Origin: an uncultured Oscillospiraceae bacterium
GTDB taxonomy: Bacteria; Bacillota; Clostridia; Oscillospirales; Ruminococcaceae
DNA length: 64,000 nt
Reading direction: 5' to 3'
NCBI GenBank assembly: GCA_964369645.1
Contig: CAYJFO010000001.1
Span: 703-64,702, forward strand
Position numbers and translations under genes: made by a program. Positions 3,848 through 48,655 of this stretch are shown here, one piece after another. The notes below the pieces were generated by a model, which ran no database searches, had not been told where the DNA came from, and saw nothing but the letters and a program-made list of their open reading frames with translations. Every line of letters starts with the position of its first letter. Within the stretch, counting starts at the first letter, position 1.

Positions 3848-5014
3848 TTATTTATCCTTTTCAATTTCCTTTTTGTCAATGTCGATACCAACATCTTTTG
3901 CAACCTTTTCAAGGTCGTCCGACGCCTTGTCAAGCGTCTCAACATATTCTTTTGCCGCCTTTTCTATCTTCTCTTGATTCTCTTTTTCAAGCTGTTTTTG
4001 CTGTTGTTCTCTTTGCTTTTCTTTTTGCTCAATCTCTTTTTCGGCTTCTTTTATCTTTTTGTTGGTTTTTTCAAGTTTTTTGTTCTCTCTTTCCTGTTCA
4101 AACTTCAAAAGTAAAAGCTTAGCTTCGTCCGTCTTTCCAAACGGCATCATATAATCGACGTCTGTTTTTCGTTTAGTTTGAATCTTTTTGCGAATTACTA
4201 TAATCGCCATAAGCGAAACAACAAACCCAGCAAGCGCCAACAACTGGGACACCCTTATCGAGCCTATATACAAACTATCGGTTCTAAGTCCTTCGATAAA
4301 AAATCTTCCAAAACCATTCCATGCAAGGTAAATAAGGAATATCTCGCCGTCGAACTTGCGTCTGTTTGCGTAAAACAATACAAACAAAAATCCTATAGCA
4401 CACCAAAGTGATTCATATAAAAAAGTTGGGTGAACCGGAAGCATTGGATCGACCATTATACCTTTTTCCACCAAATCAGCCATACTGTTTTGCAGATAGA
4501 AAGTTGTGACGTCGCTTTTCATTCCCCACGGAAGCGTCGTGTTTATTCCAAACGCCTCTTGATTGATAAAGTTTCCCCATCTTCCAATAGCTTGTCCGAT
4601 TAAAAATCCACCCGAAGCAACGTCAAGTGCCGGCAAAAACTTAACCTTTCTTAACGGACACATAAAGATTGTCGAAACAACTGCAAAGATAACGGTGCCG
4701 TAAAACGCAAGACCGCCTTTTCTAAAATTAAATATCTCGACGATGCTGTCGAATTCTCCGGGCGCTGCAAACACAAAATAGTATACCCTTGCGCCGATAA
4801 TTCCGGCAATTGCTCCGACCAATATAACGTCGAGCAACCTGTCGCTGTCTATACCAAATTTTTTTGCGTTTAACGTTGCATATACCATTCCGAGAAGCAA
4901 CCCCAAACCAATCAAAATTCCGTACCAATATATATCAAATCCGCCTATCGACAACGCAACCCTGTTAACCGTAATCTCAAGACCGATTCCCGGAAAGCTT
5001 ACTAGCACATCCAT
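3848..5014 (-). CDS. lgt: Prolipoprotein diacylglyceryl transferase with ~100-aa K/E-rich C-terminal extension
   Basis: YWYGILIGLG, GRWGNFINQEAFG and HPTFLYESLW signatures and multiple TM helices. The last ~100 aa are a charged coiled-coil-like tail. Confidence 0.9.
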   Translation of the reverse strand: MDVLVSFPGIGLEITVNRVALSIGGFDIYWYGILIGLGLLLGMVYATLNAKKFGIDSDRLLDVILVGAIAGIIGARVYYFVFAAPGEFDSIVEIFNFRKGGLAFYGTVIFAVVSTIFMCPLRKVKFLPALDVASGGFLIGQAIGRWGNFINQEAFGINTTLPWGMKSDVTTFYLQNSMADLVEKGIMVDPMLPVHPTFLYESLWCAIGFLFVLFYANRRKFDGEIFLIYLAWNGFGRFFIEGLRTDSLYIGSIRVSQLLALAGFVVSLMAIIVIRKKIQTKRKTDVDYMMPFGKTDEAKLLLLKFEQERENKKLEKTNKKIKEAEKEIEQKEKQREQQQKQLEKENQEKIEKAAKEYVETLDKASDDLEKVAKDVGIDIDKKEIEKDK

Positions 5015-5015
5015 T

Positions 5016-6335
5016 TTACTCTACCCCTTTTTCTTGTTTTGGCAAAACTACCGCCGTCGCAGAAAATTCATCTATTAATATCTCTTGCAAAACTTTTTCG
5101 GTATATTCTATCGAAATATCTTTTGCTTGTTCGAGATAATCATACGCACAAACGCCTTTAAAATGTGAGTAGACAAGGTTTGTAGCAACCTCTTCAACAC
5201 TGTCGAAATCTATTATCGTGTCGCCAATTAAAGCGCGCTTTGATTCCAAAAATCTTTGCTCGTCTATTCCATTATTTTTAAAAGTCTTGATCTCTTTTTT
5301 TATAAGTTCAATTGCTTTATACGGGTCTTCCGATTCAGAAGAAAATGTTGTACAAAGAAACCCTCTGCCCTCTATCGCCTCGGTCGAGAGTGGGCCATTT
5401 ATAAGCCCGTTGTCGTATAATTCGCGGAAAAGCTCGCTTGTTTCGCCCGCAATTATATCGAGAATAATCTCAATTGCAATAGATTTCTTTAACTCTTGTT
5501 TTTCGCCACACATAGGTTTTTCCTTAAAACCTAAACAAAACATAGGCGACGAGATATCAAGCTTTTGTTCAAACTCACCCTGAAAAATTTCGCGAGGCTC
5601 ATCTACCACAAGATACTCAACCTTGCTGTCAAAAGTTTTTATGATATCTTTTTTTGACTCTACAAGTTCGAAAACGCTTTCAGGGTCGATGTTGCCAGCA
5701 ACCGCTAGCACCATGTTTTCGGGGCGATAATACGCCTCGTAGCATTCGAACAATGTGTCTTTTGTTATATCCGCTATCGTTTCAACCGTTCCGGCTATAT
5801 CGTCTCTAACGGTGTGGTTAACATAAAGCGACTGTAACAGTCCAAACAACATAACCCACGGCGCAGCGTCAAGATACATCTTAATCTCTTGACCTATAAT
5901 TCCCTGTTCTTTTTCAACCGTTTCTTTTGTAAAATATGGTTCGTTTACAAAATCGATTAAAGAACTTAACGATTCAAGTTGGTTAGCCGATGCCGAAAAA
6001 AGATAACAGGTCTTGTCAAACGATGTGAACGCATTTGCTGAAGCTCCCGTTTTCGCAAACAATGTGAACGCGTCACCTTTTTCGCTTTCAAAAAGCTTAT
6101 GTTCTAGAAAATGTGCAATCCCCGCCGGAACCTCAATCTTTTTTCCGTCAAGTTTAAACGTTCGGTCGACAGAACCAATCTTCGCCCCATAAAGCGCATA
6201 GACCGACGACTTATCCGGCATAGGGTAGACCACAACGGCAAGTCCGTTATCAAACGTTTTTTTATAATAACTTTCAAGCAAAATTTCATTTTGCTGCAAA
6301 ATCTTATCTGTAGCTTTATTCATATTTATGACCAT
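5016..6335 (-). CDS. M16 (pitrilysin/insulinase) family zinc peptidase, YmfH-like active subunit
   Basis: HFLEHKLFE (HxxEH zinc site) near the N-terminus. ~430 aa, paired with a second M16 ORF. Confidence 0.8.
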   Translation of the reverse strand: MVINMNKATDKILQQNEILLESYYKKTFDNGLAVVVYPMPDKSSVYALYGAKIGSVDRTFKLDGKKIEVPAGIAHFLEHKLFESEKGDAFTLFAKTGASANAFTSFDKTCYLFSASANQLESLSSLIDFVNEPYFTKETVEKEQGIIGQEIKMYLDAAPWVMLFGLLQSLYVNHTVRDDIAGTVETIADITKDTLFECYEAYYRPENMVLAVAGNIDPESVFELVESKKDIIKTFDSKVEYLVVDEPREIFQGEFEQKLDISSPMFCLGFKEKPMCGEKQELKKSIAIEIILDIIAGETSELFRELYDNGLINGPLSTEAIEGRGFLCTTFSSESEDPYKAIELIKKEIKTFKNNGIDEQRFLESKRALIGDTIIDFDSVEEVATNLVYSHFKGVCAYDYLEQAKDISIEYTEKVLQEILIDEFSATAVVLPKQEKGVE

Positions 6336-35881: not shown

Positions 35882-36784
35882 ATGAAGTTTAATAATTTTT
35901 TGTACTTTGCTAAATTTGGAGTTAAAACTATACTGTTTAAAAAGAAAGATCCTATTTTGGGAACCATTATACTAACCGATAAATGCAACCTTTCTTGTAA
36001 ACATTGTTCGGTAAACAACATAACCGCCGTTATGCATAGTTATGAACAAGTAAAAAGCGAGATGGCTTGGCTTTATAGAATGGGTATTCGCATCTTGTTT
36101 TTTTGTGGCGGCGAAACATTTATGTGGAACGACGATGGCAAAACTGTGCGCGACCTTGTTAAGGAAGCAAAAAAGATGGGTTTTTTAATTGTAAACGTCG
36201 TTACAAACGGAACGTTTGAGCTTAACCTTCCCGAAGCAGATCTTATCCTTTTAAGCGTTGACGGAGATAAACAGCGCCACAACGATATACGCGGAGACAC
36301 ATATGATTTAATTATGCAAAACATTAAAAACGCGACAAGCGATAATATCTGCTTTTACATGGCAATTAATCAGATAAACAAAGACACTATTCGCGACGTT
36401 TGCATAACCGCACGCGACACAAAAAACGTTCGCGCCGTTTCGTTTAACTTCCACACCCCCTATCAAGACACAGAGCACCTAGCGCTTTCTATTTCTGAAA
36501 AACTTAAATGTTTTAAAACTATCAAAAAGATGATAGACCAGGGAGTCCCAGTGTTTAACCTTAAATCCGCGTTTCCGTACATTGCGAATAACAGTTTCCC
36601 GACGCCGTGCCATCAATGTGTCGTTATAGAAAATGGAATTATCCACACCTGTGGACGATGTATCGAGGTTTCGGGGCTTTGCAAAAACTGTGGGTATTTT
36701 TTTGTCGCAGAGTACACTTTACTTTTTAGCGGAAAGATAAAGATAATCTTGGATATGCTTTTTACCTATCTTAAATATATCTAA
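35882..36784 (+). CDS. Radical SAM enzyme with Cys-rich (SPASM/twitch-like) C-terminus
   Basis: LTDKCNLSCKHCS (CxxxCxxC), GGETF, and a C-terminal CHQC..TCGRC..LCKNC cluster. Confidence 0.75.
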   Translation: MKFNNFLYFAKFGVKTILFKKKDPILGTIILTDKCNLSCKHCSVNNITAVMHSYEQVKSEMAWLYRMGIRILFFCGGETFMWNDDGKTVRDLVKEAKKMGFLIVNVVTNGTFELNLPEADLILLSVDGDKQRHNDIRGDTYDLIMQNIKNATSDNICFYMAINQINKDTIRDVCITARDTKNVRAVSFNFHTPYQDTEHLALSISEKLKCFKTIKKMIDQGVPVFNLKSAFPYIANNSFPTPCHQCVVIENGIIHTCGRCIEVSGLCKNCGYFFVAEYTLLFSGKIKIILDMLFTYLKYI

Positions 36785-36844
36785 TAAACTATTATATTGT
36801 ATACATATATTTAGCCTTTACGCCTTTTAACGAATGGAGATTTA

Positions 36845-38098
36845 ATGAGCTTTTTAACCACCGTTTCAAGAATGTGGTTGACTAAAACCACAAAACCTTT
36901 TACGTTTACAAACGAATATGACAATTCACTTGATTTCGAGCAACTTGAAAATCTGGGACTTTATGTTCACATACCGTTTTGCAAAAACATCTGTGACTTT
37001 TGTCCCTATTGCAAGGAAATTTATGACAAACAAAAAGCAAACGTTTATATCGACAGTTTAATACAAGAGATCCATCTTGTCGGAAAAGGATTGCAAAATA
37101 AAAAGATGGTAACAAGCCTTTATTTTGGCGGAGGAACTCCGGCTTTGGTTGCAAACAGGCTTTACGAAATCATTGATGCTTTAAAGCTATATTTTGAGAT
37201 AACCGAAGGCATTGGGCTTGAACTCCACCCCGAAAACGTCAACACCGAGACACTTGAAACGATAAAAAAAGCCGGTGTCACAAAAATAAGCATCGGTATC
37301 CAGTCTTTTTCAAAAAAGTTCTTAGATGTTTTGGGTAGAAACCCCGCTAATATTGAAGACTTATCAAACGCTTTGAAACAAACTTCGTTTGAAACGGTGT
37401 CGATGGATTTTATATTTGCTCTTCCAAACCAAACAAAACAAGATTTAATAACCGATATCGACACGGCTTTTTCTATCGGCGCAAACCACATAGCGGTCTA
37501 TCCGTTTATTGACTTTACGTTTACAAAAAGCGCGGTTAAAACGATGGACAAAAAACAAAAAAGAAAACTGCTCGACGATATAACACTTTACTGTCAAAAA
37601 AAATGTTACAAAAGGGACTCAATCTGGACGTTTTCCAACACAGATAAAGCAAAGTATTCCTCTATGACAAGAGACAACTTCTTAGGGTTTGGTTGTTCCG
37701 CAACCACACTTTTAAAGGATAGTTTCAAAATCAACACGTTTTCCGTCCAACATTATATCGAGCGCATCAACAAAAAACAACTCCCAACTTCGCTTACAAT
37801 TCGTTTCACCAAAAGACAACGTATGGTTTATTTTTTATTTTGGACGGCATATAGCACACATGTAAATCCAAAAGCCTTTGAGGAGTTTTTCGGTGTTTCG
37901 CTTAAAAGCAAATTTGGTTTTGAAATTTTACTTGCAAAGAAACTTGGGTTTATAACGGAAACAGACGGAATCTTGTCGATGACGTTAAAAGGCGCGTTTT
38001 ACTATCACCACTACGAAAACTACTACACACTTTCGTATATAGACAAAATGTGGTCGGTTATGCGAAAACAAGCGTTTCCAAAAGAAATAAAATTTTAG
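36845..38098 (+). CDS. HemN-family (class C) radical SAM enzyme
   Basis: YVHIPFCKNICDFCPY, YFGGGTP and a HemN_C-like C-terminal domain. 417 aa. Confidence 0.75.
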   Translation: MSFLTTVSRMWLTKTTKPFTFTNEYDNSLDFEQLENLGLYVHIPFCKNICDFCPYCKEIYDKQKANVYIDSLIQEIHLVGKGLQNKKMVTSLYFGGGTPALVANRLYEIIDALKLYFEITEGIGLELHPENVNTETLETIKKAGVTKISIGIQSFSKKFLDVLGRNPANIEDLSNALKQTSFETVSMDFIFALPNQTKQDLITDIDTAFSIGANHIAVYPFIDFTFTKSAVKTMDKKQKRKLLDDITLYCQKKCYKRDSIWTFSNTDKAKYSSMTRDNFLGFGCSATTLLKDSFKINTFSVQHYIERINKKQLPTSLTIRFTKRQRMVYFLFWTAYSTHVNPKAFEEFFGVSLKSKFGFEILLAKKLGFITETDGILSMTLKGAFYYHHYENYYTLSYIDKMWSVMRKQAFPKEIKF

Positions 38099-38219
38099 TT
38101 TTAAAATATGTATTAAAAACGCTTTAACAAAAAGTGTTGAATACCTCCTGTTAAACAAGAAGAAACCATCAAGCTTTTTGCAGTATACAATTTATAAAGC
38201 GCAAAAAGCGGAACGGGTT

Positions 38220-38312
38220 TTTAGGGCGTGTGTCGCCCTAAATCGTTGAGGGGGTTTTGGGGGTGTCGGGGGACAAAGGGGGAGATTCGAAACTCCCCCT
38301 AGTCCCCTGACA
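38220..38312 (+). other. GC-rich structured island: 9-bp hairpin, four G5 tracts, and an alternative 11+7 bp composite hairpin
   Basis: TTTAGGGCG-TGTGT-CGCCCTAAA (38220-38242). G5-N4-G5-N4-G5-N5-G5 (38250-38282). TGTCGGGGGAC/GTCCCCTGACA encloses GGGGGAG-ATTCGAAA-CTCCCCC (38264-38312). Confidence 0.6.
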
Positions 38313-38344
38313 AAAAACGCTTCTCTAAAAAAAATTGCTCTTCT

Positions 38345-38412
38345 GATTATTTATATAATCGCTGCCTTGCGGCAGAGCTCTTGGAAATAATCCTGCGGAT
38401 TATTTATATAAT
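38345..38412 (+). repeat. Two direct copies of GATTATTTATATAAT, 53 nt apart, with two small hairpins between them
   Basis: Copies at 38345-38359 and 38398-38412. Hairpins are CTGCC-TTGC-GGCAG (38362-38375) and AAATAATCC-TGC-GGATTATTT (38385-38405). Confidence 0.8.
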
Positions 38413-38425
38413 ATTATTACCGATC

Positions 38426-38466
38426 AAAAAGGCAAAGGGTCAAAATTTAACCCTTTGCCTTTTTTT
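38426..38466. terminator. Bidirectional terminator (msrAB on the minus strand, radical SAM operon on the plus strand)
   Basis: A5-GGCAAAGGG-(11-nt loop)-CCCTTTGCC-T7. Confidence 0.8.
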
Positions 38467-38499
38467 GTAATAATTAAATATTAGAAATCTGTTTTTGTT

Positions 38500-39639
38500 C
38501 TAGTTCACTTCGACAAGATGTTGAAGATATCCGTATCCCCTTTCGGTCATCTCGTCATACGGTATGAACTCAAGCGCCGCGCCGTTTATACAATACCTTA
38601 ATCCACCGTCGTCAACAGGTCCGTCCTCAAACACATGCCCAAGGTGCGAATCGCCTACGCGACTTTTAATTTCAACTCGTTTCATTCCAAAACTGCTATC
38701 GTCGTGTTCGACAACAACGCTTTGGTCGATAGGCCTTGTAAAGCTAGGCCACCCTGAACCGCTGTCGTATTTATCGGTTGAGCTAAAAAGCGGTTCACCG
38801 GTTACGACGTCAACATATATACCCGATTGTTTATTGTCATTGTATTCGTGGGTAAACGCGCGTTCTGTTGCGCCATTTCTAACTACGTCATACTGCAACT
38901 CTGAAAGTTGTTGTTTAAGTTGTTCGTCGGTCGGAACTTGATATGACGATGGGTCGATAACCGTCAAACCCTCGCTTGCCGTGCTAAGATCTATATGGCA
39001 ATATCCGTTAGGATTTTTCTTTAGGTAATCTTGGTGGTACTCTTCCGCAAGATAGAAATGTTCAAGCGGCAAAAGTTCAACCGCCAACGGTTCATCATAC
39101 TGTTGTTGAACGATATCTAGATGTTTTTTCGCAACTTCCTGATGCATTTCGTTTTCAAAATATATTCCTGTTCGATACTGTGTTCCGACGTCGTTTCCTT
39201 GTTTGTTTAGACTTGTCGGGTCAATTATCTTAAAATAATGCTCAAGCAAAAAGTCAAGTTCAACCTGTTTCGGGTCAAAAACGACCCTGACGGTTTCGGC
39301 GTGGCCAGTGTTGTTGTAGATAACGTCTTGATAACTTGGGTTTTCCGTGTTACCGTTTGCATACCCCGATGAAGAATCATATACCCCGTTTATCCTGGCA
39401 AAATATTCCTCGACACCCCAAAAACAACCGCCTGCAAGGTAGATTGTTTCAAGTTCTTCGCTTTGAATTAGTTGTTGAACTTGTTGTTCTTTTTGTTCAA
39501 ACGATAGCGTCATCTCTTCTGCTTCCTCCTTGTTTGTCTCGTTTATTGGCGAGTCTTGCGTATATATATCGGAACATCCGACAACTAAACCGCACATGCT
39601 CAGTGTTAATATTATTACCGCGATTTTATTTTTAAACAT
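38500..39639 (-). CDS. msrAB: Bifunctional peptide methionine sulfoxide reductase MsrA/MsrB, lipoprotein
   Basis: Lipobox LVVGC after the signal peptide, the MsrA motif [11 protein letters not shown], and the MsrB motifs GWPSF and RYCINGAAL. Confidence 0.9.
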
Positions 39640-39810: not shown

Positions 39811-39849
39811 AAAAAAGCGGCCAACCTTTTTAAAGGTTGGCCGCTTTTT
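39811..39849. terminator. Strong bidirectional terminator ending the Q/P-rich operon
   Basis: A6-GCGGCCAACCTTT-TT-AAAGGTTGGCCGC-T5. Confidence 0.85.
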
Positions 39850-39867: not shown

Positions 39868-41676
39868 TCAATAGTATTCGTCGTCGTCATCATAATCATC
39901 GTCGTCATCGTCATCATAGCCGTTGTCGTTAACAACCTTACCGGTTGACATCACAACAAGCAATGCTGCCGCGGCAAGGAACATTGCGGCAACTGCTAGC
40001 ATTATAGCAAGGTTAGCTCCTTCAGAGGTAAACCCTTTTATAAGCCTTAGTATCTCTGCGCCCTCAACCGCTATCGCTCCTGAACTGTCAACGGTTGGGT
40101 CGGGAACTCCAAGCGACATCAAAGTCATTACTAGAGCAACAAGCCCGACAAGTCCAAATAAAATTCCAAAAATCAGTTTAGCAATGCTCATCTTTACAAC
40201 CGGTTGAGCAACATCGTCAAACCCTCCGAAACCTTTGGGCGGAGAAAATTGCTCTGAGACCCCTCTAAAAGCATTGGAATTTTGCATCATTGCAGGATTG
40301 TTGTTTCTTTGATTATTTAAAAACCCGTCGTTAGCAACGGTTTGCATAGGGGGTCTTTGAGGCGGCATATTTTGTGCGCCCATTCTTTGGTGCATAGCCG
40401 CTGAAGGTGGTTGGTTTTGTGGTCTCAACTCTTGTTGTTCAGCAGGCGGACGTTGGTTTTGAACCAAAGGTCGCTGGCTTTGTACGTATGACCTTTGTTC
40501 CGAGATCGGCTGCCTTTGTTCAACTGGTGGTCGTTGACTAGTCACTTGAGGACGTTGCTGTGGCGCTTGCTGTCTTTGTTCATCCATCGGAGGACGTTCG
40601 CTTTGAATTTGTGGCCTTTGCGCCGGGTTAATTATAGGGCGAGCGACCGATTGTTCGGCGTTTATTTCCCTTTGTTGTTTTGGTTGTGGTGTTTGTGTTG
40701 CTGTTGGTGGTGTGTTTTGTGGTTCGACAGGGGGAAGTTTATGCGCTTGTTGTTGGGCACGGGGTACAGACATCGGCGCAACACTTCCCGGTTTGATTGG
40801 TTGATTTGGTGCGGCAAGTTTCTTTTGAGCCGCAACTAAAACTGCGGTCCTTGTCATTATAACTTCATCCGCTACATAGTCTCCCGCCAACTGATCCGGA
40901 TTGAAAAATTGCGGAATAAAATTCCCCGATTTTCCCGAACCAACCACGACACACAATGCATATAATACAATTATTAAAAATATTACAAGATTTAAAAAGC
41001 TCGCAAATTTAAAATCCATCATCGACGAAATGTTTGTCGCTAACGTTTCGGGTTCAAGGTATCCGTAATACCCGAATGCGGCCAGCAACACCATTGTTAT
41101 TGCAAGCGAAAAAACTGTTGTTACAAAATTAAATTTTTGACGGTTAAGTAACAAAGCTAACATCATCGAAAGCATTGTAAAAAACAAAACGGCATAAAGA
41201 CCGACAAAATAAAGTGAGATTATATAATTCAAAACAAAGTTTAATCGTATAAGCATGCTAAATATAAACGTCAAAACATATCCGACAGAATAGGTCACCG
41301 CGGCGGCAATTAACGTTGCGGTTAAACGCGCAGCGGTTATTCCGGCGGTCGCAAGGCCCATCTTAATCAACAGATTACATCGGTTATTATTTATCTCCGC
41401 AAAACCAAAAAGTTTTGGATGGATAATATAGTGTATCAAAAGGGTTATAAGCGCAAGCGTTACGTATATATATTGCATTCCGAACAACGAGCTCGGAAGA
41501 TATGTCGGTATAACGTCTTCCCCAAGCGACGTTTGAAGTATAATCAAGATATAGTGCGCCGCAATAGCGCCCATAACGATTCCGGCCGCCCAAATCATCT
41601 GTCGAGGAAAATCAAATCTGCCATTTATTAGTTGTTCTTTTTTTTCAATTTTAATGAATCCCGAAATATCACTCAT
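39868..41676 (-). CDS. Polytopic membrane protein (ABC-2 permease-like N-terminal ~280 aa), ~210-aa P/Q/R-rich insert, two more TM helices, poly-Asp tail
   Basis: About 6 hydrophobic helices in aa 25-245. QRP-type repeats span aa ~285-495. The C-terminus has the helices LIFGILFGLVGLVALVMTLM and LAIMLAVAAMFLAAAALLVVM, then DDDDDDYDDDDEYY. The ATG abuts the upstream stop codon. Confidence 0.5.
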   Translation of the reverse strand: MSDISGFIKIEKKEQLINGRFDFPRQMIWAAGIVMGAIAAHYILIILQTSLGEDVIPTYLPSSLFGMQYIYVTLALITLLIHYIIHPKLFGFAEINNNRCNLLIKMGLATAGITAARLTATLIAAAVTYSVGYVLTFIFSMLIRLNFVLNYIISLYFVGLYAVLFFTMLSMMLALLLNRQKFNFVTTVFSLAITMVLLAAFGYYGYLEPETLATNISSMMDFKFASFLNLVIFLIIVLYALCVVVGSGKSGNFIPQFFNPDQLAGDYVADEVIMTRTAVLVAAQKKLAAPNQPIKPGSVAPMSVPRAQQQAHKLPPVEPQNTPPTATQTPQPKQQREINAEQSVARPIINPAQRPQIQSERPPMDEQRQQAPQQRPQVTSQRPPVEQRQPISEQRSYVQSQRPLVQNQRPPAEQQELRPQNQPPSAAMHQRMGAQNMPPQRPPMQTVANDGFLNNQRNNNPAMMQNSNAFRGVSEQFSPPKGFGGFDDVAQPVVKMSIAKLIFGILFGLVGLVALVMTLMSLGVPDPTVDSSGAIAVEGAEILRLIKGFTSEGANLAIMLAVAAMFLAAAALLVVMSTGKVVNDNGYDDDDDDDYDDDDEYY

Positions 41677-44175
41677 CTATTTCACCAATTCTTTCCGACC
41701 CAAAACAAACGACCTAACCCCAAGCCTCACGGTTTTGAGGTCGATTTCGTTGTTACTAAGTTCGACAACAACGTTTTCAACAACCGAAGCGTCTGCTCCT
41801 TTTCCTTTAACCGTTACTTTATCGTTGTCTGTCGAGAATTCGAGATTTTCAAAAGCTTTTGAAATCTTTTCGATCTTTTCGGCATCATTTGATTCAAACG
41901 TCATAATCTCTTCACAGTATTTTTCTATAAACTCTCTGTAAACTCCGTTAAACGCAACCTCGCCTTCTTTTAAAGCCAAAACTCTATTTGGTAGATTGCT
42001 TGAGAGTATGTCGTTGCAATCGTTCATAATAACCGTTATATCACGAAGTCTTAACATCTCGAAAACTTTCATCATTCGTACTTCGTCTTCCGGTTCAAGC
42101 AATAATTTTCTAAAGTTAATTACAACGCATCTGATTAACGGATTTTGTGTGGCCGCTATAAGTAAAACCATGATTTTTCGTGCAGTCGAGAAAAGTTTCA
42201 TAGTGTCGTCCGCAACGTTGTCAAGCCCGAGTTTCTCGAGAATTTCGGTTAATTTTTGTATCTTAACTTCGTCGTCAGTCTGAACCTTTGCAATGCATTG
42301 CATAAGGAAATCAAAAACCGTCATTCGGTCGGGAACCATCGAATCGTCGTCGATATAAAGAACTTCTTGCATTATGCTTTTGCTTCGTACTTCGTTTCCA
42401 TTGATAAGCATATCGCCGTTAGCAAGTCCTAGCCCCGTTCCGACAAGTTTAGCTATCGCGTATTTTGTCGCTTCGTCCTCGCTTGTAACGACGGTGCAAC
42501 TTGAAACGGGGAAGTTTGCTGTGACGTTTGAAAACACCGGTATTCCCTCGTCATCCGACGAAGAAAGTAGATATTTTGACGTCGCTTCTCGTATGTTTAT
42601 ATAACTCCTGTCCGGAAATTTAAACAGGTTGTTTTGCGTAAAGATTTTGTCGAAGTCCGCAATAACCACCGCTTGTTCAAGTTTGCTTTGAATCTCCGCA
42701 ATGTCCACCTTTGGCTTTTGAATCTGGTTCGCTTTAGGAAGCTGCGGTAGAGTTGTTGGTGGGGTTATCGGCGTGTTGATTTGTGGCGGCTGTTTTTGAG
42801 CCGTCGGCGCGCCGCCTTGTGGCGGCCGTTGTAAAGGCGGCCGTTGCATAGGTGGCCTTTGCTGCCCTTGCGCTCCCCTTTGCGGTCGTGCTTGTCCGAC
42901 AGGGCCTTTGTTTGACGGTGGTCTCCTGTCGGGAGGTTTTTGGTTTGGGTTTGGGTTTGGCCGAGGCCCCCTTTGCATTTCGGGAGACATTGGTCTTTGT
43001 TGCATACTACCCGGACGCGCGGGAGGTTTGTTTCTTGGAGCATTCGGATTAAACGAACTTCCGTCATGGTTGTTCGCTTGATTTACCGGTCTTTTGGGCT
43101 GTACCGGTCTTTCGTCGTCCTCCGACACAGCCTCTTTAAAATTTCCTCTTTTACCTTTTCCAAAAGTTTGGTCGAATTTACTTCCCGAAAACGGAGTAAC
43201 TTCGTTTTTATTTTGTTGATCGAATATATCGGATTTTGGTTCGTTGGAACCAAAAGGATCATTGTCGTTTTGTTCAAATCCCTGTTGTTGGCCATTAAAT
43301 GCCTGTTGGCCTTGCGACATAAAGTTTATTCCGCCAGCGCCACCGTTTGGTTGCGCACCAAGGTCAAACGCACCTTGTCCACCGTCAAAAGATTGTCCTA
43401 ACGAAAAATCGTTATAATTTGAACCGTCCGTTACGTTTTGCGGCATATTGTTTGCGCCAAACAAGTTGTTTTGCACACCCAAATGTTGCATAACGTCATA
43501 TGCCGGATTTTGTGCATGATCGGGTATCGGCAACTGAACGGGGCTGTTTTGCGGCATACCATAGTTCATTCCCTGTGACATGTCGAAATTTTGAGCCAGA
43601 TCTTGGGTTGGGTTAAATCCTGATTGTCCCATCGGCATCGACTGCATACCGTTTCCGTAGATATCCTGTCCTATCGGCATTTGGGGTTGCCCTGTCGGTT
43701 GAGAAAAATCTTGTGCCGACGATACACCAAACATGCCTTGCGAGAAATCTTGCATAGGTTGAAGTTGTGCTGGCTGTCCCGGTTGTACATATCCGCCGCC
43801 ATACATCGCTTGTTCTTGTGGGTTTTGTCCTAAAGCGGTTGGCACCATCATGTTGTCTTGATATTGTGTGCCGCTAAACGACATATCGTTCACACCGATG
43901 TTTGGAAGTTGTCCTATTTGAGGTTGATATGGGTCAACAGGCAGCGTCCCGTATTGCAACGGTTGCTGTTGAATCTGATTTTGAGCATAAGGATCTAACC
44001 CTTGACCTATCGGTTGGGTCGGTTGTCCTTGAACCGCTTGATTTTGATAGATATCGCCATTTAACGGAACGTTTTGCGCCCCTATTTGTTGAGACATATT
44101 TGGCACCTGTCCATTCCCTGTAACGTTGTTAGGGTCGTTTGGATTTATCGGTTGGTTCGGATAAAAATTCTGCAT
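41677..44175 (-). CDS. Q/N/P-rich low-complexity protein with C-terminal degenerate ABC-ATPase fold (pseudo-ATPase) plus ABC-2-type C-terminal extension
   Basis: aa 1-345 are Q/N/G/M-rich and aa 355-490 are basic P/Q/R-rich. aa 500-750 are colinear with ABC ATPases, but every catalytic motif is replaced (details in findings). Confidence 0.55.
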   Translation of the reverse strand: MQNFYPNQPINPNDPNNVTGNGQVPNMSQQIGAQNVPLNGDIYQNQAVQGQPTQPIGQGLDPYAQNQIQQQPLQYGTLPVDPYQPQIGQLPNIGVNDMSFSGTQYQDNMMVPTALGQNPQEQAMYGGGYVQPGQPAQLQPMQDFSQGMFGVSSAQDFSQPTGQPQMPIGQDIYGNGMQSMPMGQSGFNPTQDLAQNFDMSQGMNYGMPQNSPVQLPIPDHAQNPAYDVMQHLGVQNNLFGANNMPQNVTDGSNYNDFSLGQSFDGGQGAFDLGAQPNGGAGGINFMSQGQQAFNGQQQGFEQNDNDPFGSNEPKSDIFDQQNKNEVTPFSGSKFDQTFGKGKRGNFKEAVSEDDERPVQPKRPVNQANNHDGSSFNPNAPRNKPPARPGSMQQRPMSPEMQRGPRPNPNPNQKPPDRRPPSNKGPVGQARPQRGAQGQQRPPMQRPPLQRPPQGGAPTAQKQPPQINTPITPPTTLPQLPKANQIQKPKVDIAEIQSKLEQAVVIADFDKIFTQNNLFKFPDRSYINIREATSKYLLSSSDDEGIPVFSNVTANFPVSSCTVVTSEDEATKYAIAKLVGTGLGLANGDMLINGNEVRSKSIMQEVLYIDDDSMVPDRMTVFDFLMQCIAKVQTDDEVKIQKLTEILEKLGLDNVADDTMKLFSTARKIMVLLIAATQNPLIRCVVINFRKLLLEPEDEVRMMKVFEMLRLRDITVIMNDCNDILSSNLPNRVLALKEGEVAFNGVYREFIEKYCEEIMTFESNDAEKIEKISKAFENLEFSTDNDKVTVKGKGADASVVENVVVELSNNEIDLKTVRLGVRSFVLGRKELVK

Positions 44176-44199
44176 TTTATAACAATTCCTTATATTTTA

Positions 44200-44517
44200 T
44201 TATAGATTAAAAATTTCAAATATATCGCTTATTTCTCGCGAATTAAGCGCGCTTGCTATCACAGCGACAAGCCCACAAAAAACAAAAACAATCGCCATTT
44301 TTATAACCGCAAACAAAACACTCATTTGTTGGGATTGTTGCTTTATTTCGGGCAGATTAGAGGGCGCCGCCCCGCCGGCTACCGGCGCTTGTGGATTATT
44401 TGGCGCTTGTGGATTAGGGTTAGTTGGCGCTTGTGGGTTAATTGGCGCTCGTGTCCCCGTTTGGGCTTTTACTCCACTAGTGTTTCCAGAAACCATACTT
44501 ACGATTTTTCCTTCCAT
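44200..44517 (-). CDS. Small tail-anchored membrane protein with NPQAP repeats
   Basis: NPQAPTNPNPQAPNNPQAP is followed by the single TM helix MSVLFAVIKMAIVFVFCGLVAVIASAL. An alternative start is the ATG at 44496, which has a better SD. Confidence 0.5.
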   Translation of the reverse strand: MEGKIVSMVSGNTSGVKAQTGTRAPINPQAPTNPNPQAPNNPQAPVAGGAAPSNLPEIKQQSQQMSVLFAVIKMAIVFVFCGLVAVIASALNSREISDIFEIFNL

Positions 44518-44659
44518 ATTGACAGTTTGTGCGCTTTTCTAGATATCTTTGTTTTTTTAAACCCTTGTTAATTTAAGCTTAAAATAACCAATAAACTTCT
44601 GTTTTTTCTTGCTTAATGGCGCAAAAAAACAAGCAAACAAACAATATTTTTTTATTAAC

Positions 44660-44688
44660 TTGATTACTTTTTTCATTTAAGATATAAT
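44660..44688 (+). promoter_or_regulatory. Sigma-A promoter of the DUF1893-mrp operon
   Basis: TTGATT, 17-nt spacer, TATAAT. Confidence 0.55.
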
Positions 44689-44745
44689 GGTGTAGTTTAA
44701 TTATACATAATATAAGCCAAAAATCAAGTTTTTTGTAGTTCAAAC

Positions 44746-45198
44746 TTGGAAAAAATAAAGGAAATTTCTCAAAATATGGATTTGAAAAACCTAATTGAAA
44801 TGGACGATTGTTCTGTTGCTGTAAAGCTCCAAAACAACCAAGTTATAAAAAGAGTTGGCAAAAGTGTTCGCCCACTCTACGACATCTATCTTAATTTCAA
44901 AAACGAGATGAACGGCGCACAGGTTGCTGATAGAATTATTGGAAAAGCCGCCGCTAGTTTGCTTGTCGACGCAAATGTCAAAAGCGTCTACACCTTTTTA
45001 CTAAGTCATTCTGCTAAACGGCTTTTAGAGTCAAACGGAATAACAACCGAATATGTCACACTTTGTGAACACATCGAAAATCGTCACGGAACCGACCTTT
45101 GCCCAATGGAAAAACTTATTGTCGACATAGACGATGTCTCTGTTTGCATCGAAAAGATAGATTGGTTTGTTAAAAACGTCCAATACCCAAATAGTTAA
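44746..45198 (+). CDS. DUF1893-like small protein
   Basis: ~140-150 aa with the segment VADRIIGKAAASLLV, immediately upstream of an Mrp/NBP35 ATPase. The start is uncertain (TTG 44746 or ATG 44776). Confidence 0.5.
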   Translation: MEKIKEISQNMDLKNLIEMDDCSVAVKLQNNQVIKRVGKSVRPLYDIYLNFKNEMNGAQVADRIIGKAAASLLVDANVKSVYTFLLSHSAKRLLESNGITTEYVTLCEHIENRHGTDLCPMEKLIVDIDDVSVCIEKIDWFVKNVQYPNS

Positions 45199-45218
45199 TT
45201 TCAAGGAGATTTTTTTAC

Positions 45219-46043
45219 ATGAGTGATTGTAGCAAAGACTGTTCTTCGTGTGGTAGTGGTTGCCCCTCAAGCGGAATTACCCACGAACTTCCAAATTCGA
45301 TGAGTCGAATAAAAAAAGTTGTTGCGGTTATGAGCGGAAAAGGCGGCGTTGGAAAATCGCTAACTTGTTCTATGCTTGCCGTTTTGCTTAACCGAATGGG
45401 ATACAAAACAGCGGTGCTAGACGCCGACATAACCGGTCCTTCGATTCCAAAGATATTTGGTATTACGGAAAAAGCCGAAGGAACTGAGCTTGGAATTCTT
45501 CCAAGACCATCCAAAACAGGCATAAAGATTATGTCGGTAAACATGCTTCTTGCAAACGAAACCGACCCAGTAATCTGGCGCGGTCCCGTAATCTCGGGAA
45601 TGGTTCAAAAATTTTGGACCGACGTTATCTGGCACGATGTCGATTTCATGTTCATAGACATGCCCCCCGGAACGGGTGATGTTCCGCTCACCGTGTTTCA
45701 ATCGATTCCGGTTGACGGAATCGTTGTCGTAACCTCTCCGCAAGAACTCGTTTCGATGATAGTTGAAAAAGCCGTAAACATGGCCGACATAACCGAAACT
45801 CCTATACTTGCGGCGGTTGAAAACATGTCGTACTACGAATGTCACGATTGCAAAACCAAAGTCGAAATTTTCGGACAAAGCAAGGTAGAAAAAACCGCAA
45901 GCACCCACGGTATCGACGTAACAGCAAAGATCCCAATTAACCCAAAATTCTCGGCAGCATGCGACGCGGGCACTATCGAACTTTTTGAGTCAAGCTGTCT
46001 CGACAACGTCGCGAGCGTCGTCGAACAACTCCTTAAAGGGTAG
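45219..46043 (+). CDS. Mrp/NBP35/ApbC family iron-sulfur cluster carrier ATPase
   Basis: Cys-rich N-terminus (CSKDCSSCGSGC), the deviant Walker A VMSGKGGVGKS, and the motif CHDC. Confidence 0.88.
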   Translation: MSDCSKDCSSCGSGCPSSGITHELPNSMSRIKKVVAVMSGKGGVGKSLTCSMLAVLLNRMGYKTAVLDADITGPSIPKIFGITEKAEGTELGILPRPSKTGIKIMSVNMLLANETDPVIWRGPVISGMVQKFWTDVIWHDVDFMFIDMPPGTGDVPLTVFQSIPVDGIVVVTSPQELVSMIVEKAVNMADITETPILAAVENMSYYECHDCKTKVEIFGQSKVEKTASTHGIDVTAKIPINPKFSAACDAGTIELFESSCLDNVASVVEQLLKG

Positions 46044-46220
46044 ATGTCGTTTGTGGTTTATTATTCCTATAATAACCGCAAATATCATGATTGTTCAAAA
46101 AAAATTTTATAAAACTAATTAAAGCGTATGACGGCGATAAATCATTTTTGTTTTATCAAGCCACTCATACGCTTTTTAAATGCATTATTTTTTTATAAAA
46201 ATCTAAACTGTTGTCGTTAT

Positions 46221-48455
46221 CTAGTTTGTATCTTTTGGGTTCGATTGTACCACGGCGGCTTTTTTTTGGCGTTTTTTTCTTTTCATCAAGATAAAACTAA
46301 CAACTCCTAACGCCGTAACGACCGATAAAACTACCCCAACTTCAAAACCGTTTGGAACAAAGTATATCTCTATTTTGTGTTCCCCTTTTTCAAGAGGTAT
46401 CGCACAAAGTGCACCAAACGCAGGGACTATCTCGGCCACCATTCCGTCTACTTTACAGCGCAACCCTTTTGAATACGGCATCGAAAGAAACAACACGTTA
46501 TCTCCCGACATGTTAATCGTTCCGTTTATCCCATTGTTCGAGGTTTGTGTAATTTTTAATGTATTTTGCGAAAGATTTATAAGCTCGGCTTCAATCTCGA
46601 AAACCTCGTTCCCAACAAGTGCCGTCAAAAGAGCTAACTGGTTTTGCTCTGCAACGTCAAACGAAGATATCGCCGAAACAACCGCATTGTCTGCTTCAAA
46701 CCCTAACGGCAAAGCATAGTTGTTTTCGTAAAGGGTTGTCGTTTCGTTACTGTCGATTTCTCTAAGATATGGTATTTTATCATTAGAAAACGCATACTTA
46801 ACTCCCAAAACACTGTCGCTTATAAGAGATGTCGGGCGATAGGCAACCGCTTTAAAATTGTCGTCATATCCAAAGTCGCCCATAAGTTGTTGGAACGGAA
46901 CGTCGTAAGTCGAAGTAAAAAACGAAAAGCCATAATACCCTAAAACCGAACCGTCGTTTATAGCGGATATGTCGGTTTCGCCTACCCTATATATTTCATC
47001 TTGTATATCAAAATATCCAACCGACGTCAACAACTGTTGTTTGTCGTTTTGGGAGGTTGTATAGATCTTTTTTTCTGGAAAGTGTCCATTTTCAACCTGT
47101 GTTCTTATAATCAACATAGCATTTAAAAACATCTCGAGCGACAAGATCAAAAGCAAACCGATATAAACCATTTTTAATTTATACTTTTTGTTAATCAACG
47201 ACAAAATTATACAATAAGTTACGCCAAGCATCGCAGTTAAAACTATCTTGTAAATCTCTATGTCTTGATTAAAGAACCGTATAAAAACGTGTAGCGATAA
47301 AAACGCCAAAGCCAAAACAACAAAATACCTTTTTTTTACGTTGTCTAAGTCGTTAAAACTCTTTGCCGCAACACTAATCAACAGGAAGCAAAAACAAAAT
47401 ACATAGCGATACGGAAACGAGTTTGGATAGGAAAAGCCGTGCCACACAATGTCAAGTTCCGGCAACAAAAAGCTTATAAACATAAAACCTACAAAAACCG
47501 CTGTGGCGATTTTTTCTTTTACTCCAAACCTTTTTGACACAAAATAAAGCGCGACCAACGAAAACACAAACAAAGAACAATAGATGGTCGGCGCTGCTTG
47601 GTTACCCGCTCCGTCATAAAAGCCTATGAAAAGTTTTAGCAAAAGTTGTTTTAATGTAAAATTAAATTCGCCATAACCGTTGTACACGGGAACGGAGTTT
47701 TGAACCATAAAAACAACATTTGGAAAAATAATAAACGCCGAAAGCAAGACCGAAACAATCACACAACTAAAAAGGAGGCTCAATATTTTTTTCGCGACTT
47801 TCCCCTTTAAAACGGCAATATATATCGTATACAAAGCTACAAAAAGTCCCGTTATATACGCCATATAAAAGTTTGTTATTATTACAGCCGAAACAGAAAA
47901 TATAAGCAACAGTCTTCCGTCTTTTCCGTCAAAAATTTGTTCAACAGCAAGCACAATAAGTGGCAAAAGAACAACCGCATCGAACCAGAAAAAATTGCTG
48001 TAAAAAAACAACCCAAACGACATAAGCGAATATGCTATCGATAAAATAACCGGCTTAACATACCCCGTAAGCACGCGACTTTTTAAATATAAACTCATAG
48101 TAGACGCCGAACATGATACTTTAAGCCAAAATATCAAAAGTGCCGCTTTGTCAAGATTTTGTGCGTCAAAAAACAAAACGACCAAGTTAAAAGGGCTTGC
48201 AAGATAGTATGCAAATGTTGGGAAAAAGTTCATCGAAAGCCCTATGTTTTGATTAAAAAAAACATCTCCGTTTTTAAGCGCAGACAAAAATGGGATATAC
48301 TGGGTTTGCACATCCGATATAATAAACGACATCTCGGAAAAAAGCCCGACTCCATTAACCGAAAAAGCCAGTATATAAAGAAGCAAACTTAACGCCCCAG
48401 ACGCCGTCATCATGATAATATATTTATGCTTTATTCTATTTGTTTTATATTTCAT
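46221..48455 (-). CDS. YfhO family polytopic membrane protein (GT-C type extracytoplasmic glycosyltransferase)
   Basis: ~745 aa with ~13 TM helices, a large C-terminal extracytoplasmic domain and a final TM anchor, which is the typical YfhO layout. The ATG at 48455 lies 6 nt after a GGAG SD. Confidence 0.7.
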   Translation of the reverse strand: MKYKTNRIKHKYIIMMTASGALSLLLYILAFSVNGVGLFSEMSFIISDVQTQYIPFLSALKNGDVFFNQNIGLSMNFFPTFAYYLASPFNLVVLFFDAQNLDKAALLIFWLKVSCSASTMSLYLKSRVLTGYVKPVILSIAYSLMSFGLFFYSNFFWFDAVVLLPLIVLAVEQIFDGKDGRLLLIFSVSAVIITNFYMAYITGLFVALYTIYIAVLKGKVAKKILSLLFSCVIVSVLLSAFIIFPNVVFMVQNSVPVYNGYGEFNFTLKQLLLKLFIGFYDGAGNQAAPTIYCSLFVFSLVALYFVSKRFGVKEKIATAVFVGFMFISFLLPELDIVWHGFSYPNSFPYRYVFCFCFLLISVAAKSFNDLDNVKKRYFVVLALAFLSLHVFIRFFNQDIEIYKIVLTAMLGVTYCIILSLINKKYKLKMVYIGLLLILSLEMFLNAMLIIRTQVENGHFPEKKIYTTSQNDKQQLLTSVGYFDIQDEIYRVGETDISAINDGSVLGYYGFSFFTSTYDVPFQQLMGDFGYDDNFKAVAYRPTSLISDSVLGVKYAFSNDKIPYLREIDSNETTTLYENNYALPLGFEADNAVVSAISSFDVAEQNQLALLTALVGNEVFEIEAELINLSQNTLKITQTSNNGINGTINMSGDNVLFLSMPYSKGLRCKVDGMVAEIVPAFGALCAIPLEKGEHKIEIYFVPNGFEVGVVLSVVTALGVVSFILMKRKKRQKKAAVVQSNPKDTN

Positions 48456-48655
48456 AACACTCTCCAACTTTTGGAAATTATCATTTTATGTTGAAAGTTT
48501 TTTGTATTTACTATAATATTATAACAACTATACACAAGATTTGCAAAACACAAGGCAAGTTAAATGAGTGAACAATTGCGTTGATTTACTTTTTGTAAGA
48601 CTTAATTTTGCCATTACTTGAAGTTAACAAAACGTTTTTTCTAAGGGGTTTTAAT

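Follow-up and report, generated by a model that had tools for sequence, protein, structure and literature searches.

A putative non-catalytic ABC-2-type module with long disordered regions in an uncultured Oscillospiraceae bacterium

A 64,000-nucleotide stretch of DNA from an uncultured Oscillospiraceae bacterium (GCA_964369645.1, contig CAYJFO010000001.1, positions 703 to 64,702; hereafter the window) carries three open reading frames, ORF1, ORF2 and ORF3, that form a compact operon. We propose, with roughly even confidence, that this operon is a non-catalytic descendant of the ATP-binding cassette 2 (ABC-2, type V) group, the most likely role of which is to anchor long disordered chains at the membrane, or to act as a hub for them, on the cytoplasmic side. 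That estimate is a rough blend of two others. The architecture, an ABC-2-like core with a nucleotide-binding domain (NBD) devoid of its ATP motifs and with disordered tails, is in our judgement very probable, while the assignment of a scaffold function is put forward as tentative.

Results

An ABC fold without ATP motifs is predicted in ORF2

All features of the operon lie on the minus strand of the window and are given in window coordinates. ORF1 (44200-44517) encodes 105 amino acids (aa), ORF2 (41677-44175) 832 aa and ORF3 (39868-41676) 602 aa, exactly as in the first-pass annotation made from the sequence. Residues 490-754 of ORF2 (41914-42708) comprise an N-terminal helix and an ABC nucleotide-binding-like domain that would be catalytically dead; residues 755-832 (41680-41913) form an alpha/beta C-terminal domain that has counterparts in NosF and in the regulatory domain of ABCA proteins. 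The AlphaFold2 model of the last 342 residues, built from a 23-sequence alignment, has a predicted local distance difference test (pLDDT) score of 91 and a predicted TM-score (pTM) of 0.86, and its strands and helices at domain residues 266-341 correspond to the extra alpha/beta domain that follows the NBD. Searching with this model, Foldseek retrieved more than 1,000 ABC NBDs at E <= 1e-3, many of them at E ~1e-15, with a target-normalised TM-score (TMt) of up to 0.76. Among the matches listed, the highest query-normalised TM-scores (TMq) over most of the 342-residue query, C-terminal domain included, were those of NosF (0.61-0.62, 308-319 columns) and of ATP-free ABCA4 (0.63, 340 columns), two proteins of the ABC-2/type V class. 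The ABC-ATPase-like fold and the ABC-2-type C-terminal extension proposed in the first-pass annotation are therefore both supported by the structural comparison.

At the level of sequence, the last 342 residues of ORF2 match ABC ATPases weakly (EcfA2, E = 3e-5). A family profile made from the 23-sequence alignment and searched against the PDB recovers, both at 2e-11, NBD1 of ABCA4 and 1vpl, an ABC ATPase from a bacterium, followed by EcfA2 and LptB. ORF2 gave no match in Pfam, and in NCBIfam its best scores reached about 18 bits where the cut-offs start at 240. Only 5 of the 23 family members reach E = 1e-3 with the Pfam ABC_tran model (PF00005), and the C-terminal domain is not matched by Pfam DUF4162. 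Judged by the defining motifs or by curated thresholds, ORF2 is not an ABC ATPase, and its sequence marks it as a derived, non-catalytic form.

The loss of the motifs is complete. The former Walker A motif (residues 564-572, 42460-42486) reads TSEDEATKY instead of GxxGxGK[ST], and aligns to GNTGSGKST of EcfA2 and GVNGAGKTT of ABCA4 NBD2; the family pattern at this position, S-D-x-P-L-x-x-Y, has neither a Gly-rich loop nor a Lys. The former signature (residues 662-667, 42175-42192) is FSTARK for LSGGQ, and the family form LSxNKR is one residue shorter than LSGGxKR. In the former Walker B motif (residues 683-689, 42109-42129), CVVINFR stands for hhhhDE, so that the Asp is replaced by Asn and the catalytic Glu by Phe; the family consensus is V-I-x-N-D-P, in which the Asn is nearly invariant. 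The H-loop His position is occupied by Asp/Cys in ORF2 and by Cys/Ser in the family. Throughout the 23-sequence alignment, ORF2 and each of its 22 aligned relatives have other residues in place of Walker A, Walker B, signature and H-loop, in keeping with the earlier description of a dead ATPase; residue-level alignments to EcfA2 and ABCA4 confirm the positions. The old active site has acquired new near-invariant residues, Ser75, Tyr117 and Asn197 (domain numbering), which argues for a remodelled site rather than for decay. With these replacements, ORF2 would be unable to bind or hydrolyse ATP in the canonical manner.

The degenerate domain is under strong constraint

We compared the operon with two close relatives, at loci L001 and L002, using the ratio of nonsynonymous to synonymous substitution rates (dN/dS). 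The ratio for the pseudo-NBD is 0.025 against L001 and 0.052 against L002, and that for the ORF3 membrane core is 0.044 and 0.10, respectively. The disordered regions evolve faster, with values of 0.25 and 0.21 for residues 1-489 of ORF2 and of 0.25 and 0.19 for the disordered region of ORF3; residues 496-602 of ORF3 gave 0.06 against L001. The domain that lacks the ATP motifs is thus the most constrained part of the operon, and all three reading frames are conserved as such in related genomes under purifying selection.

A predicted ABC-2-permease-like core in ORF3

The hydropathy profile of ORF3 shows six N-terminal transmembrane (TM) helices, a long hydrophilic insert, two further TM helices and an acidic tail. 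The first 262 residues (40891-41676) form the six-TM core, which opens with an amphipathic helix, has a conserved TM2-TM3 loop and carries a further short helix that separates TM5 from TM6. An AlphaFold2 model of the core (pLDDT 78, pTM 0.77) has helices at residues 2-19, 23-51, 64-85, 93-105, 110-142, 149-177, 180-200, 209-218 and 227-251. Taken together, the model, the hydropathy and the distribution of Lys and Arg (K/R) predict the layout of an ABC-2 permease, that is, six TM helices with both termini inside, an amphipathic helix, a coupling helix between TM2 and TM3 and an outside helix between TM5 and TM6. The most conserved motif of the protein, FAEINNNRCNLLIKMG (residues 92-107, 41356-41403), falls in the cytoplasmic TM2-TM3 loop at the predicted coupling helix, and F92, E94, N98, L102 and G107 are invariant. 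By analogy with known transporters, this loop would be the contact site for the NBD.

Nine of the ten best Foldseek matches to the ORF3 core are ABC-2 permeases (NosY, ABCG5/8 and CcmB), with ABCG25, Rv1217c and KpsM lower. These scores are weak (E 0.03-1, TM-score 0.40-0.48, root-mean-square deviation 7-10 Å), although many carry a Foldseek probability of 0.94-1.00. Pfam searches with the core returned nothing beyond one of nine orthologues at ABC2_membrane_4 (E = 0.22), and the ORF3 family profile found nothing relevant in the PDB. The earlier description of ORF3 as ABC-2-permease-like agrees with the best structural neighbours of the six-TM core, at these weak scores, and no match was found at the sequence level. 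For ORF3 taken alone the assignment is provisional, and the main support for an ABC-2 origin is that NosF/NosY and ABCA/ABCG rank top independently for both gene products.

Only the first ~260 residues of ORF3 are kept in distant orthologues, at 17-31% identity, and the orthologue at L004 consists of the core alone (265 aa). Residues 496-602 (39871-40191), which hold the two additional TM helices and then a 17-aa Asp/Tyr tail (39871-39921), are conserved in L001 and L002. In some orthologues (L006, 8038-9477; L016, 5981-7441) a beta-rich-looking segment of about 100 aa lies between the last two TM helices and would be located outside the cell; the corresponding segment in the window has about 35 aa.

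Long disordered regions diverge in sequence and persist as disorder

ORF2 and ORF3 carry extended regions of low complexity, the composition of which departs strongly from that of the other long ORFs in the window (Q 3.5%, P 3.6%). Residues 1-345 of ORF2 (43141-44175) form an acidic Q/G/N/P-rich region (Q 17.7, G 13.3, N 11.0 and P 9.9%; net charge -20) that contains dipeptides of the FG/DF type and, at its N-terminus, the motif FYPN, and residues 346-489 (42709-43140) form a basic P/Q/R-rich region (P 24.3, Q 13.9 and R 9.7%; net charge +15). In ORF3, residues 263-495 (40192-40890) make up a basic Q/P/R-rich insert with QRP repeats, predicted to be cytoplasmic (Q 17.2 and P 15.5%; net charge +8), and the last 17 residues of the protein are 65% Asp. 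A charge-hydropathy plot places both residues 1-489 of ORF2 and residues 263-495 of ORF3 on the disordered side. The Pro/Gln/Asn-rich character noted in the first-pass annotation is borne out by these counts within the window; the same annotation overstated the first ORF2 segment as M-rich, Met amounting to only 5%, and the Q/N/P richness does not extend to the family, because the disordered regions of distant relatives are acidic and A/P/E-rich rather than Q/N-rich.

Across the family the N-terminal low-complexity region ranges from 0 to 1,281 aa and its composition varies (P/Q/N, A/P/E or E/D-rich). Even among close relatives, in which the domain is 89-99% identical, the disordered region of ORF2 diverges rapidly by substitutions and in-frame insertions and deletions. 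The ORF3 insert is missing or different in distant orthologues; the tail of the ORF3 orthologue at L014 (~4700-5217) has tandem DPRQDQ[QR][FY] repeats, so that low-complexity sequence has expanded independently here too. From these sequences, Q/N/P richness is a local trait and it is disorder, not composition, that is conserved. Charge complementarity between the ORF2 and ORF3 tails was also considered as a conserved feature and was dropped, since distant ORF2 tails are uniformly acidic and ORF3 tails short or absent.

Short motifs recur within these regions. Roughly half of 34 regions contain more FG, GF, FD and DF dipeptides than their shuffled versions (z >= 3), residues 1-489 of ORF2 having z = 3.0. 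An aromatic-Pro motif (FYPN, YNPY, YYPY) occurs within the first 15 residues of 9 of 31 full-length members, as compared with 0.85 expected from shuffles; the pattern was picked after inspection of the sequences and is a lead only. Its carriers include ORF2 itself (44152-44175) and the relatives P0005, P0012, P0014, P0017, P0019, P0025 and P0027, and another subgroup has F/Y-x-D...FPE[LV]D..TG at its N-terminus. The N-terminal motifs may represent tethered short linear motifs.

ORF2 has no signal peptide and no TM segment, and the K/R pattern of ORF3 puts its N-terminus, the TM2-TM3 and TM4-TM5 loops and the stretch following TM6 inside the cell. Because of the positive-inside rule and the absence of a signal peptide, all of the long low-complexity segments are expected in the cytoplasm, so that the low-complexity sequence of the operon would be displayed entirely on the cytoplasmic face of the membrane.

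The gene pair recurs across Oscillospiraceae

When 1.84 billion representative sequences were searched exhaustively with HMMER, 94 relatives of ORF2 were recovered, 39 of them at E < 1e-10. The better-scoring ~40 share an N-terminal low-complexity region followed by a conserved C-terminal domain of ~340 aa. Word-indexed homologue searches with the ORF2 C-terminal domain or the family profile gave nothing useful. Related loci were collected from sub-alignments, five from genomes and two from metagenomes, which samples the taxonomic range thinly. In every locus that shows the junction, an NBD-like gene is followed by a transmembrane domain (TMD) gene, the start of which overlaps or abuts the preceding stop. 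The pair is kept in L001 and L002, with the domain at 89-99% identity, and is also present in L003 (38%), in L004/L005, L006/L007 and L008 (25-30%), and in L013-L015. Six loci (L001-L004, L006 and L008) carry an ORF1-like gene as well as the pair, so that related genomes preserve the order of all three genes.

Second-tier HMMER matches of 320-340 aa have no intrinsically disordered region (IDR), and their Walker A and B motifs are also degenerate. The best named matches of these IDR-less relatives are GldA, DrrA, CcmA and NodI, far below the respective cut-offs. At L016, an IDR-less NBD-like protein has as its next neighbour a membrane protein that hhalign identifies as a homologue of the ORF3 core (98.3%, E = 2e-14). 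The recurrent pairing, IDR-less branch included, indicates that the pair of dead NBD and TMD is old and co-inherited, with the IDR-bearing cassettes as one of its branches. L016 (5001-7441, GCA_040767925.1) and the proteins P0046-P0062 represent a separate IDR-less degenerate ABC-like group of 320-340 aa. Four small genes lie upstream at L016, where genes for a Ser/Thr kinase and a LytTR regulator are also found close by.

The organism labels of the family are all Oscillospiraceae (Ruminococcaceae) metagenome-assembled genomes of the class Clostridia, and every source name for its members is 'hypothetical protein'. We found no family record in Pfam 2025, NCBIfam 2026 or PADLOC, and full-text literature searches gave no paper on it, which agrees with the earlier remark that the architecture matches no named system. 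An origin in defence or phage was considered and rejected, there being no PADLOC match and, in PHROGs, only a generic ABC-transporter family.

ORF1 is a small single-TM protein that accompanies the pair

ORF1 has a Pro-rich N-terminal tail with NPQAP repeats, a single C-terminal TM helix (residues 67-91, 44245-44319) and a conserved N-S-x...F-E-I-F end. In L001-L004, L006 and L008, orthologues of 81-97 aa with a C-terminal TM helix lie directly 5' of the ORF2 homologue, and all of them keep Asn92. Immediately upstream of the pair in L014 there is no such gene, and L015 has no recognisable one. The presence of ORF1, a part of the unit in the first-pass annotation, thus does not hold across the whole family. 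The first ATG of ORF1 has no obvious Shine-Dalgarno sequence (44490-44517), and the ATG of Met8 at 44496 is preceded, at good spacing, by GGAAGGA; the true start may be Met8, giving a protein of 98 aa.

Junctions, expression signals and neighbouring genes

The operon is bounded by a sigma-A-like promoter and a strong terminator. ORF1 and ORF2 are separated by 24 nt that contain AAGGAA, and at the ORF2-ORF3 junction (AAA TAG ATG, 41674-41682) the stop codon of ORF2 abuts the ATG of ORF3 in the same frame; both junctions are confirmed on the sequence as first described. In other loci the NBD-like and TMD genes overlap by 1 or 4 nt, as opposed to the abutting codons in the window. Readthrough of the ORF2 stop would yield an NBD-TMD fusion in the domain order of ABCG. 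The intrinsic terminator (39812-39849) has a 17-bp GC-rich stem, as anticipated from the first reading of a strong terminator ending the unit, and its flanking A-run and T-run could allow it to work bidirectionally.

Upstream, a sigma-A (sigma-70)-like promoter (44700-44727, TTGATT-16-TATAAT, 10 of 12 consensus positions) lies ~180 nt from ORF1, in a block that is kept in the alignment with L001 and L002. The window upstream region was scanned for sigma-70-type promoters only. In regular-expression scans of L002-L004, L006 and L008, none of the consensus promoters for sigma-E, -K, -F or -G was present, and a sigma-A consensus matched in L002 only; TGnTATAAT-type extended -10 boxes were read by eye upstream of the small ORF1-like gene in the distant loci. 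The occurrence of sigma-A-type promoters in all lineages examined suggests vegetative expression. The 5' leader of ~180 nt (44518-44699) is mostly missing in L002, where ~130 nt between the promoter block and ORF1 (window ~44518-44650, also present in L001) are absent (as compared with L002, 7031-7148). Neither the leader nor the locus has a Rfam match above threshold, and the leader folds no better than shuffled sequences (z = -0.11). A sub-threshold Rfam match to the SurA small RNA at 44804-45005, also on the minus strand and antisense to a TM1506-family gene (26 bits, gathering threshold 100, E = 4e-4), is probably due to chance.

GC content rises at 42-44 kb together with a strong AT skew, and the IDR-coding stretch has a GC fraction of 0.48 compared with 0.38-0.41. 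Foreign DNA was rejected as the cause, because the signal coincides with the GC-richer IDR coding sequence, and probably reflects its Pro, Gln and Gly codons. Neighbouring genes in the window (35882-39639 and 44746-48467) comprise two radical-SAM genes, a fused MsrA-MsrB, the TM1506-family gene, a Mrp/ParA-type ATPase and a YfhO membrane protein. L001 has the full arrangement, and L002 has only the side with TM1506-family gene, Mrp/ParA-type ATPase and YfhO; no functional link is evident. The neighbourhood in distant loci is a different one, with csoR-copA, a D-Ala-D-Ala carboxypeptidase gene, recG and fakA. The cassette adjoins csoR-copA in these distant relatives and not in the window. ATACCCC-N-GGGGTAT palindromes are located between the divergent csoR-like/P-type ATPase operon and the cassette (L003, 2270-2340; L004, 7466-7520; L006, 3272-3300), and these look like CsoR operators.

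Relation to known ABC systems

Among the closest known counterparts is NosFY of the NosDFY(L) ABC-2 complex (PDB 7o0y, 7osf, 7znq). NosF aligns to both the NBD and the C-terminal domain of ORF2, NosY is the best Foldseek match of the ORF3 core, and in both systems NBD and six-TM permease are encoded by separate adjacent genes. Sequence identity is nevertheless only 13-15%. Unlike ORF2, NosF retains its motifs and hydrolyses ATP; the NosFY proteins have no long disordered regions, and they act with periplasmic NosD and with NosL in the assembly of a copper centre. The ABCA/ABCG (type V) exporters are also comparable, in that ABCA4 NBD1 is, with 1vpl, the top match of the family profile, ATP-free ABCA4 has the highest TMq, the ABCG5/8 TMD is among the top ORF3 matches and the gene order of the cassette, NBD followed by TMD, is the domain order of ABCG. 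These are, however, eukaryotic ATP-driven exporters of lipids and sterols, and ABCG5/G8 has one degenerate site and keeps its P-loops, whereas a homodimer, as presumed for ORF2, would have two dead sites.

GldA, DrrA, CcmA and NodI, the top named NCBIfam families for the IDR-less degenerate relatives, are active ATPases, and the scores of the relatives fall 10- to 20-fold under the family cut-offs. ORF2 itself scores weakly, and against other ABC ATPase families than these. CcmABCD shares with the operon the inclusion of a small single-TM subunit. Disordered linkers of canonical ABC transporters have median lengths of ~150-300 aa and connect the functional domains of active pumps (PMC13257379). 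Those of CFTR (the R-domain) and ABCC resemble the regions described here in being cytoplasmic low-complexity sequence on an ABC core, in evolving faster than the domains and in their richness in short motifs (PMC13257379). In the present family, by contrast, the disordered sequence is terminal or inserted, reaches 489 aa (to ~1,280 aa in relatives) and is attached to a core without ATP motifs.

Discussion

The first-pass annotation suggested a structural, scaffolding or condensate-forming complex and not a pump; such a role would fit the loss of all catalytic motifs in combination with strong purifying selection, and is put forward here as a hypothesis. In the arrangement that we favour, ORF3 would provide a six-TM ABC-2-like membrane core, and the NBD-like and C-terminal domains of ORF2 would dock on it through the conserved TM2-TM3 loop, as NBDs do on the coupling helices of ABC-2 transporters. 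ORF1 would be a small single-TM accessory subunit. We envisage a 2+2 assembly with its tails in the cytoplasm; the disordered load would then be 489 aa from ORF2, 233 aa from ORF3 and ~60 aa from ORF1, ~780 aa per set and ~1,500 aa for the 2+2 complex. The tethered chains could recruit partners by short motifs, such as the FG/DF dipeptides and the N-terminal aromatic-Pro motif, or could self-associate. In the window only, the acidic and basic blocks of ORF2 and the basic insert and Asp/Tyr tail of ORF3 would favour electrostatic self-association.

Several observations weigh against this proposal. The charge complementarity seen in the window is not kept in distant relatives. The remodelled site of ORF2 might bind a nucleotide or another ligand in a non-canonical manner, and its near-invariant residues suggest that it has acquired another function rather than being merely dead. 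The ABC-2 assignment of ORF3 has weak structural scores (best E 0.03, TM-score <=0.48) and no sequence support, and the alignment used to model ORF3 contained only 10 sequences. Finally, the conserved neighbourhood of distant loci (csoR-copA, D-Ala-D-Ala carboxypeptidase, recG, fakA) yields no clue to function.

The operon might still encode a transporter, channel or flippase, either one that is independent of ATP, with facilitated passage or a ligand-gated remodelled site, or one that is powered by an NBD encoded elsewhere, its tails being regulatory like the R-domain of CFTR. We regard this as unlikely, although the strong conservation of the TMD core and of the predicted coupling loop would be expected of it, and the near-invariant residues that fill the old active site are compatible with a new ligand. 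ABC proteins that act as channels or regulators are generally known, CFTR and SUR among them; these retain their nucleotide-binding motifs, however, whereas each cassette here has a single NBD-like gene from which the motifs have disappeared family-wide, and no second NBD gene is conserved nearby in the loci examined (L001-L004, L006 and L008). Disordered linkers are commonly regulatory in ABC transporters (PMC13257379), but lengths from 0 to ~1,300 aa go far beyond those of known regulatory linkers. A module for morphogenesis of the envelope, for division or for sporulation, an ATP-free analogue of FtsEX or CcmABCD that signals or anchors through the outside segment between the last two TM helices, seems to us less probable again. 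FtsE and CcmB are found among the structural neighbours, the small single-TM subunit of CcmABCD (8ce1) recalls ORF1, and the hosts have sporulation genes. The promoters, however, look sigma-A-type rather than sporulation-specific, and FtsEX is generally known to need ATP hydrolysis. The outside segment, beta-rich and ~100 aa long in some orthologues, has only ~35 aa in the window, and the D-Ala-D-Ala carboxypeptidase gene that recurs beside the cassette in distant loci is encoded there on the opposite strand and is absent from the window.

It is very unlikely that the disordered N-terminus of ORF2 is itself threaded through and exported by ORF3 as a Pro/Gln-rich surface polymer of the cell wall, with the dead NBD left as a plug on the inside. 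Pro/Ala/Glu/Gln-rich low complexity is, as a matter of general knowledge, typical of Gram-positive wall-spanning segments, ABC-2 exporters do move polymers, and a recurrent motif sits at the extreme N-terminus of ORF2. Yet ORF2 is without signal peptide or TM segment, the ORF3 insert falls between cytoplasmic helix ends by the positive-inside pattern, and such threading would have neither an energy source nor a precedent. Decaying pseudogenes, or chance ORFs in low-complexity DNA, could be suspected from the extreme composition and the absence of database annotation; the dN/dS values well under 1 in every segment, the in-frame insertions and deletions, the retention of the genes across divergent genomes and the confident fold predictions refute this explanation, to which we attach a negligible probability.

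ABC transporters are among the best-studied protein machines. To our knowledge, no family has been described in which a transporter-type NBD lacks Walker A, Walker B, signature and H-loop throughout, and our literature searches found no family with such complete loss of the NBD motifs. The present analysis gives a fold-level assignment, function not included, to unnamed or 'hypothetical protein' genes of the Oscillospiraceae, a prominent gut family, and reveals a wider IDR-less group of degenerate ABC-2-like modules. If the scaffold reading is true, the operon would be a clear case of a bacterial pseudoenzyme derived from a transporter, and would offer a natural system for membrane-tethered disordered proteins, and possibly condensates, in Gram-positive anaerobes. 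A bolder version, which we consider rather doubtful, is that a gut and digester lineage of Clostridia has made an ABC-2 transporter into an ATP-independent platform with the sole task of holding a dense prion-like or FG-like brush on the inner membrane face, as a membrane condensate or selective meshwork that organises other proteins; if true, no earlier bacterial scaffold derived from a pseudo-transporter would be of such a kind.

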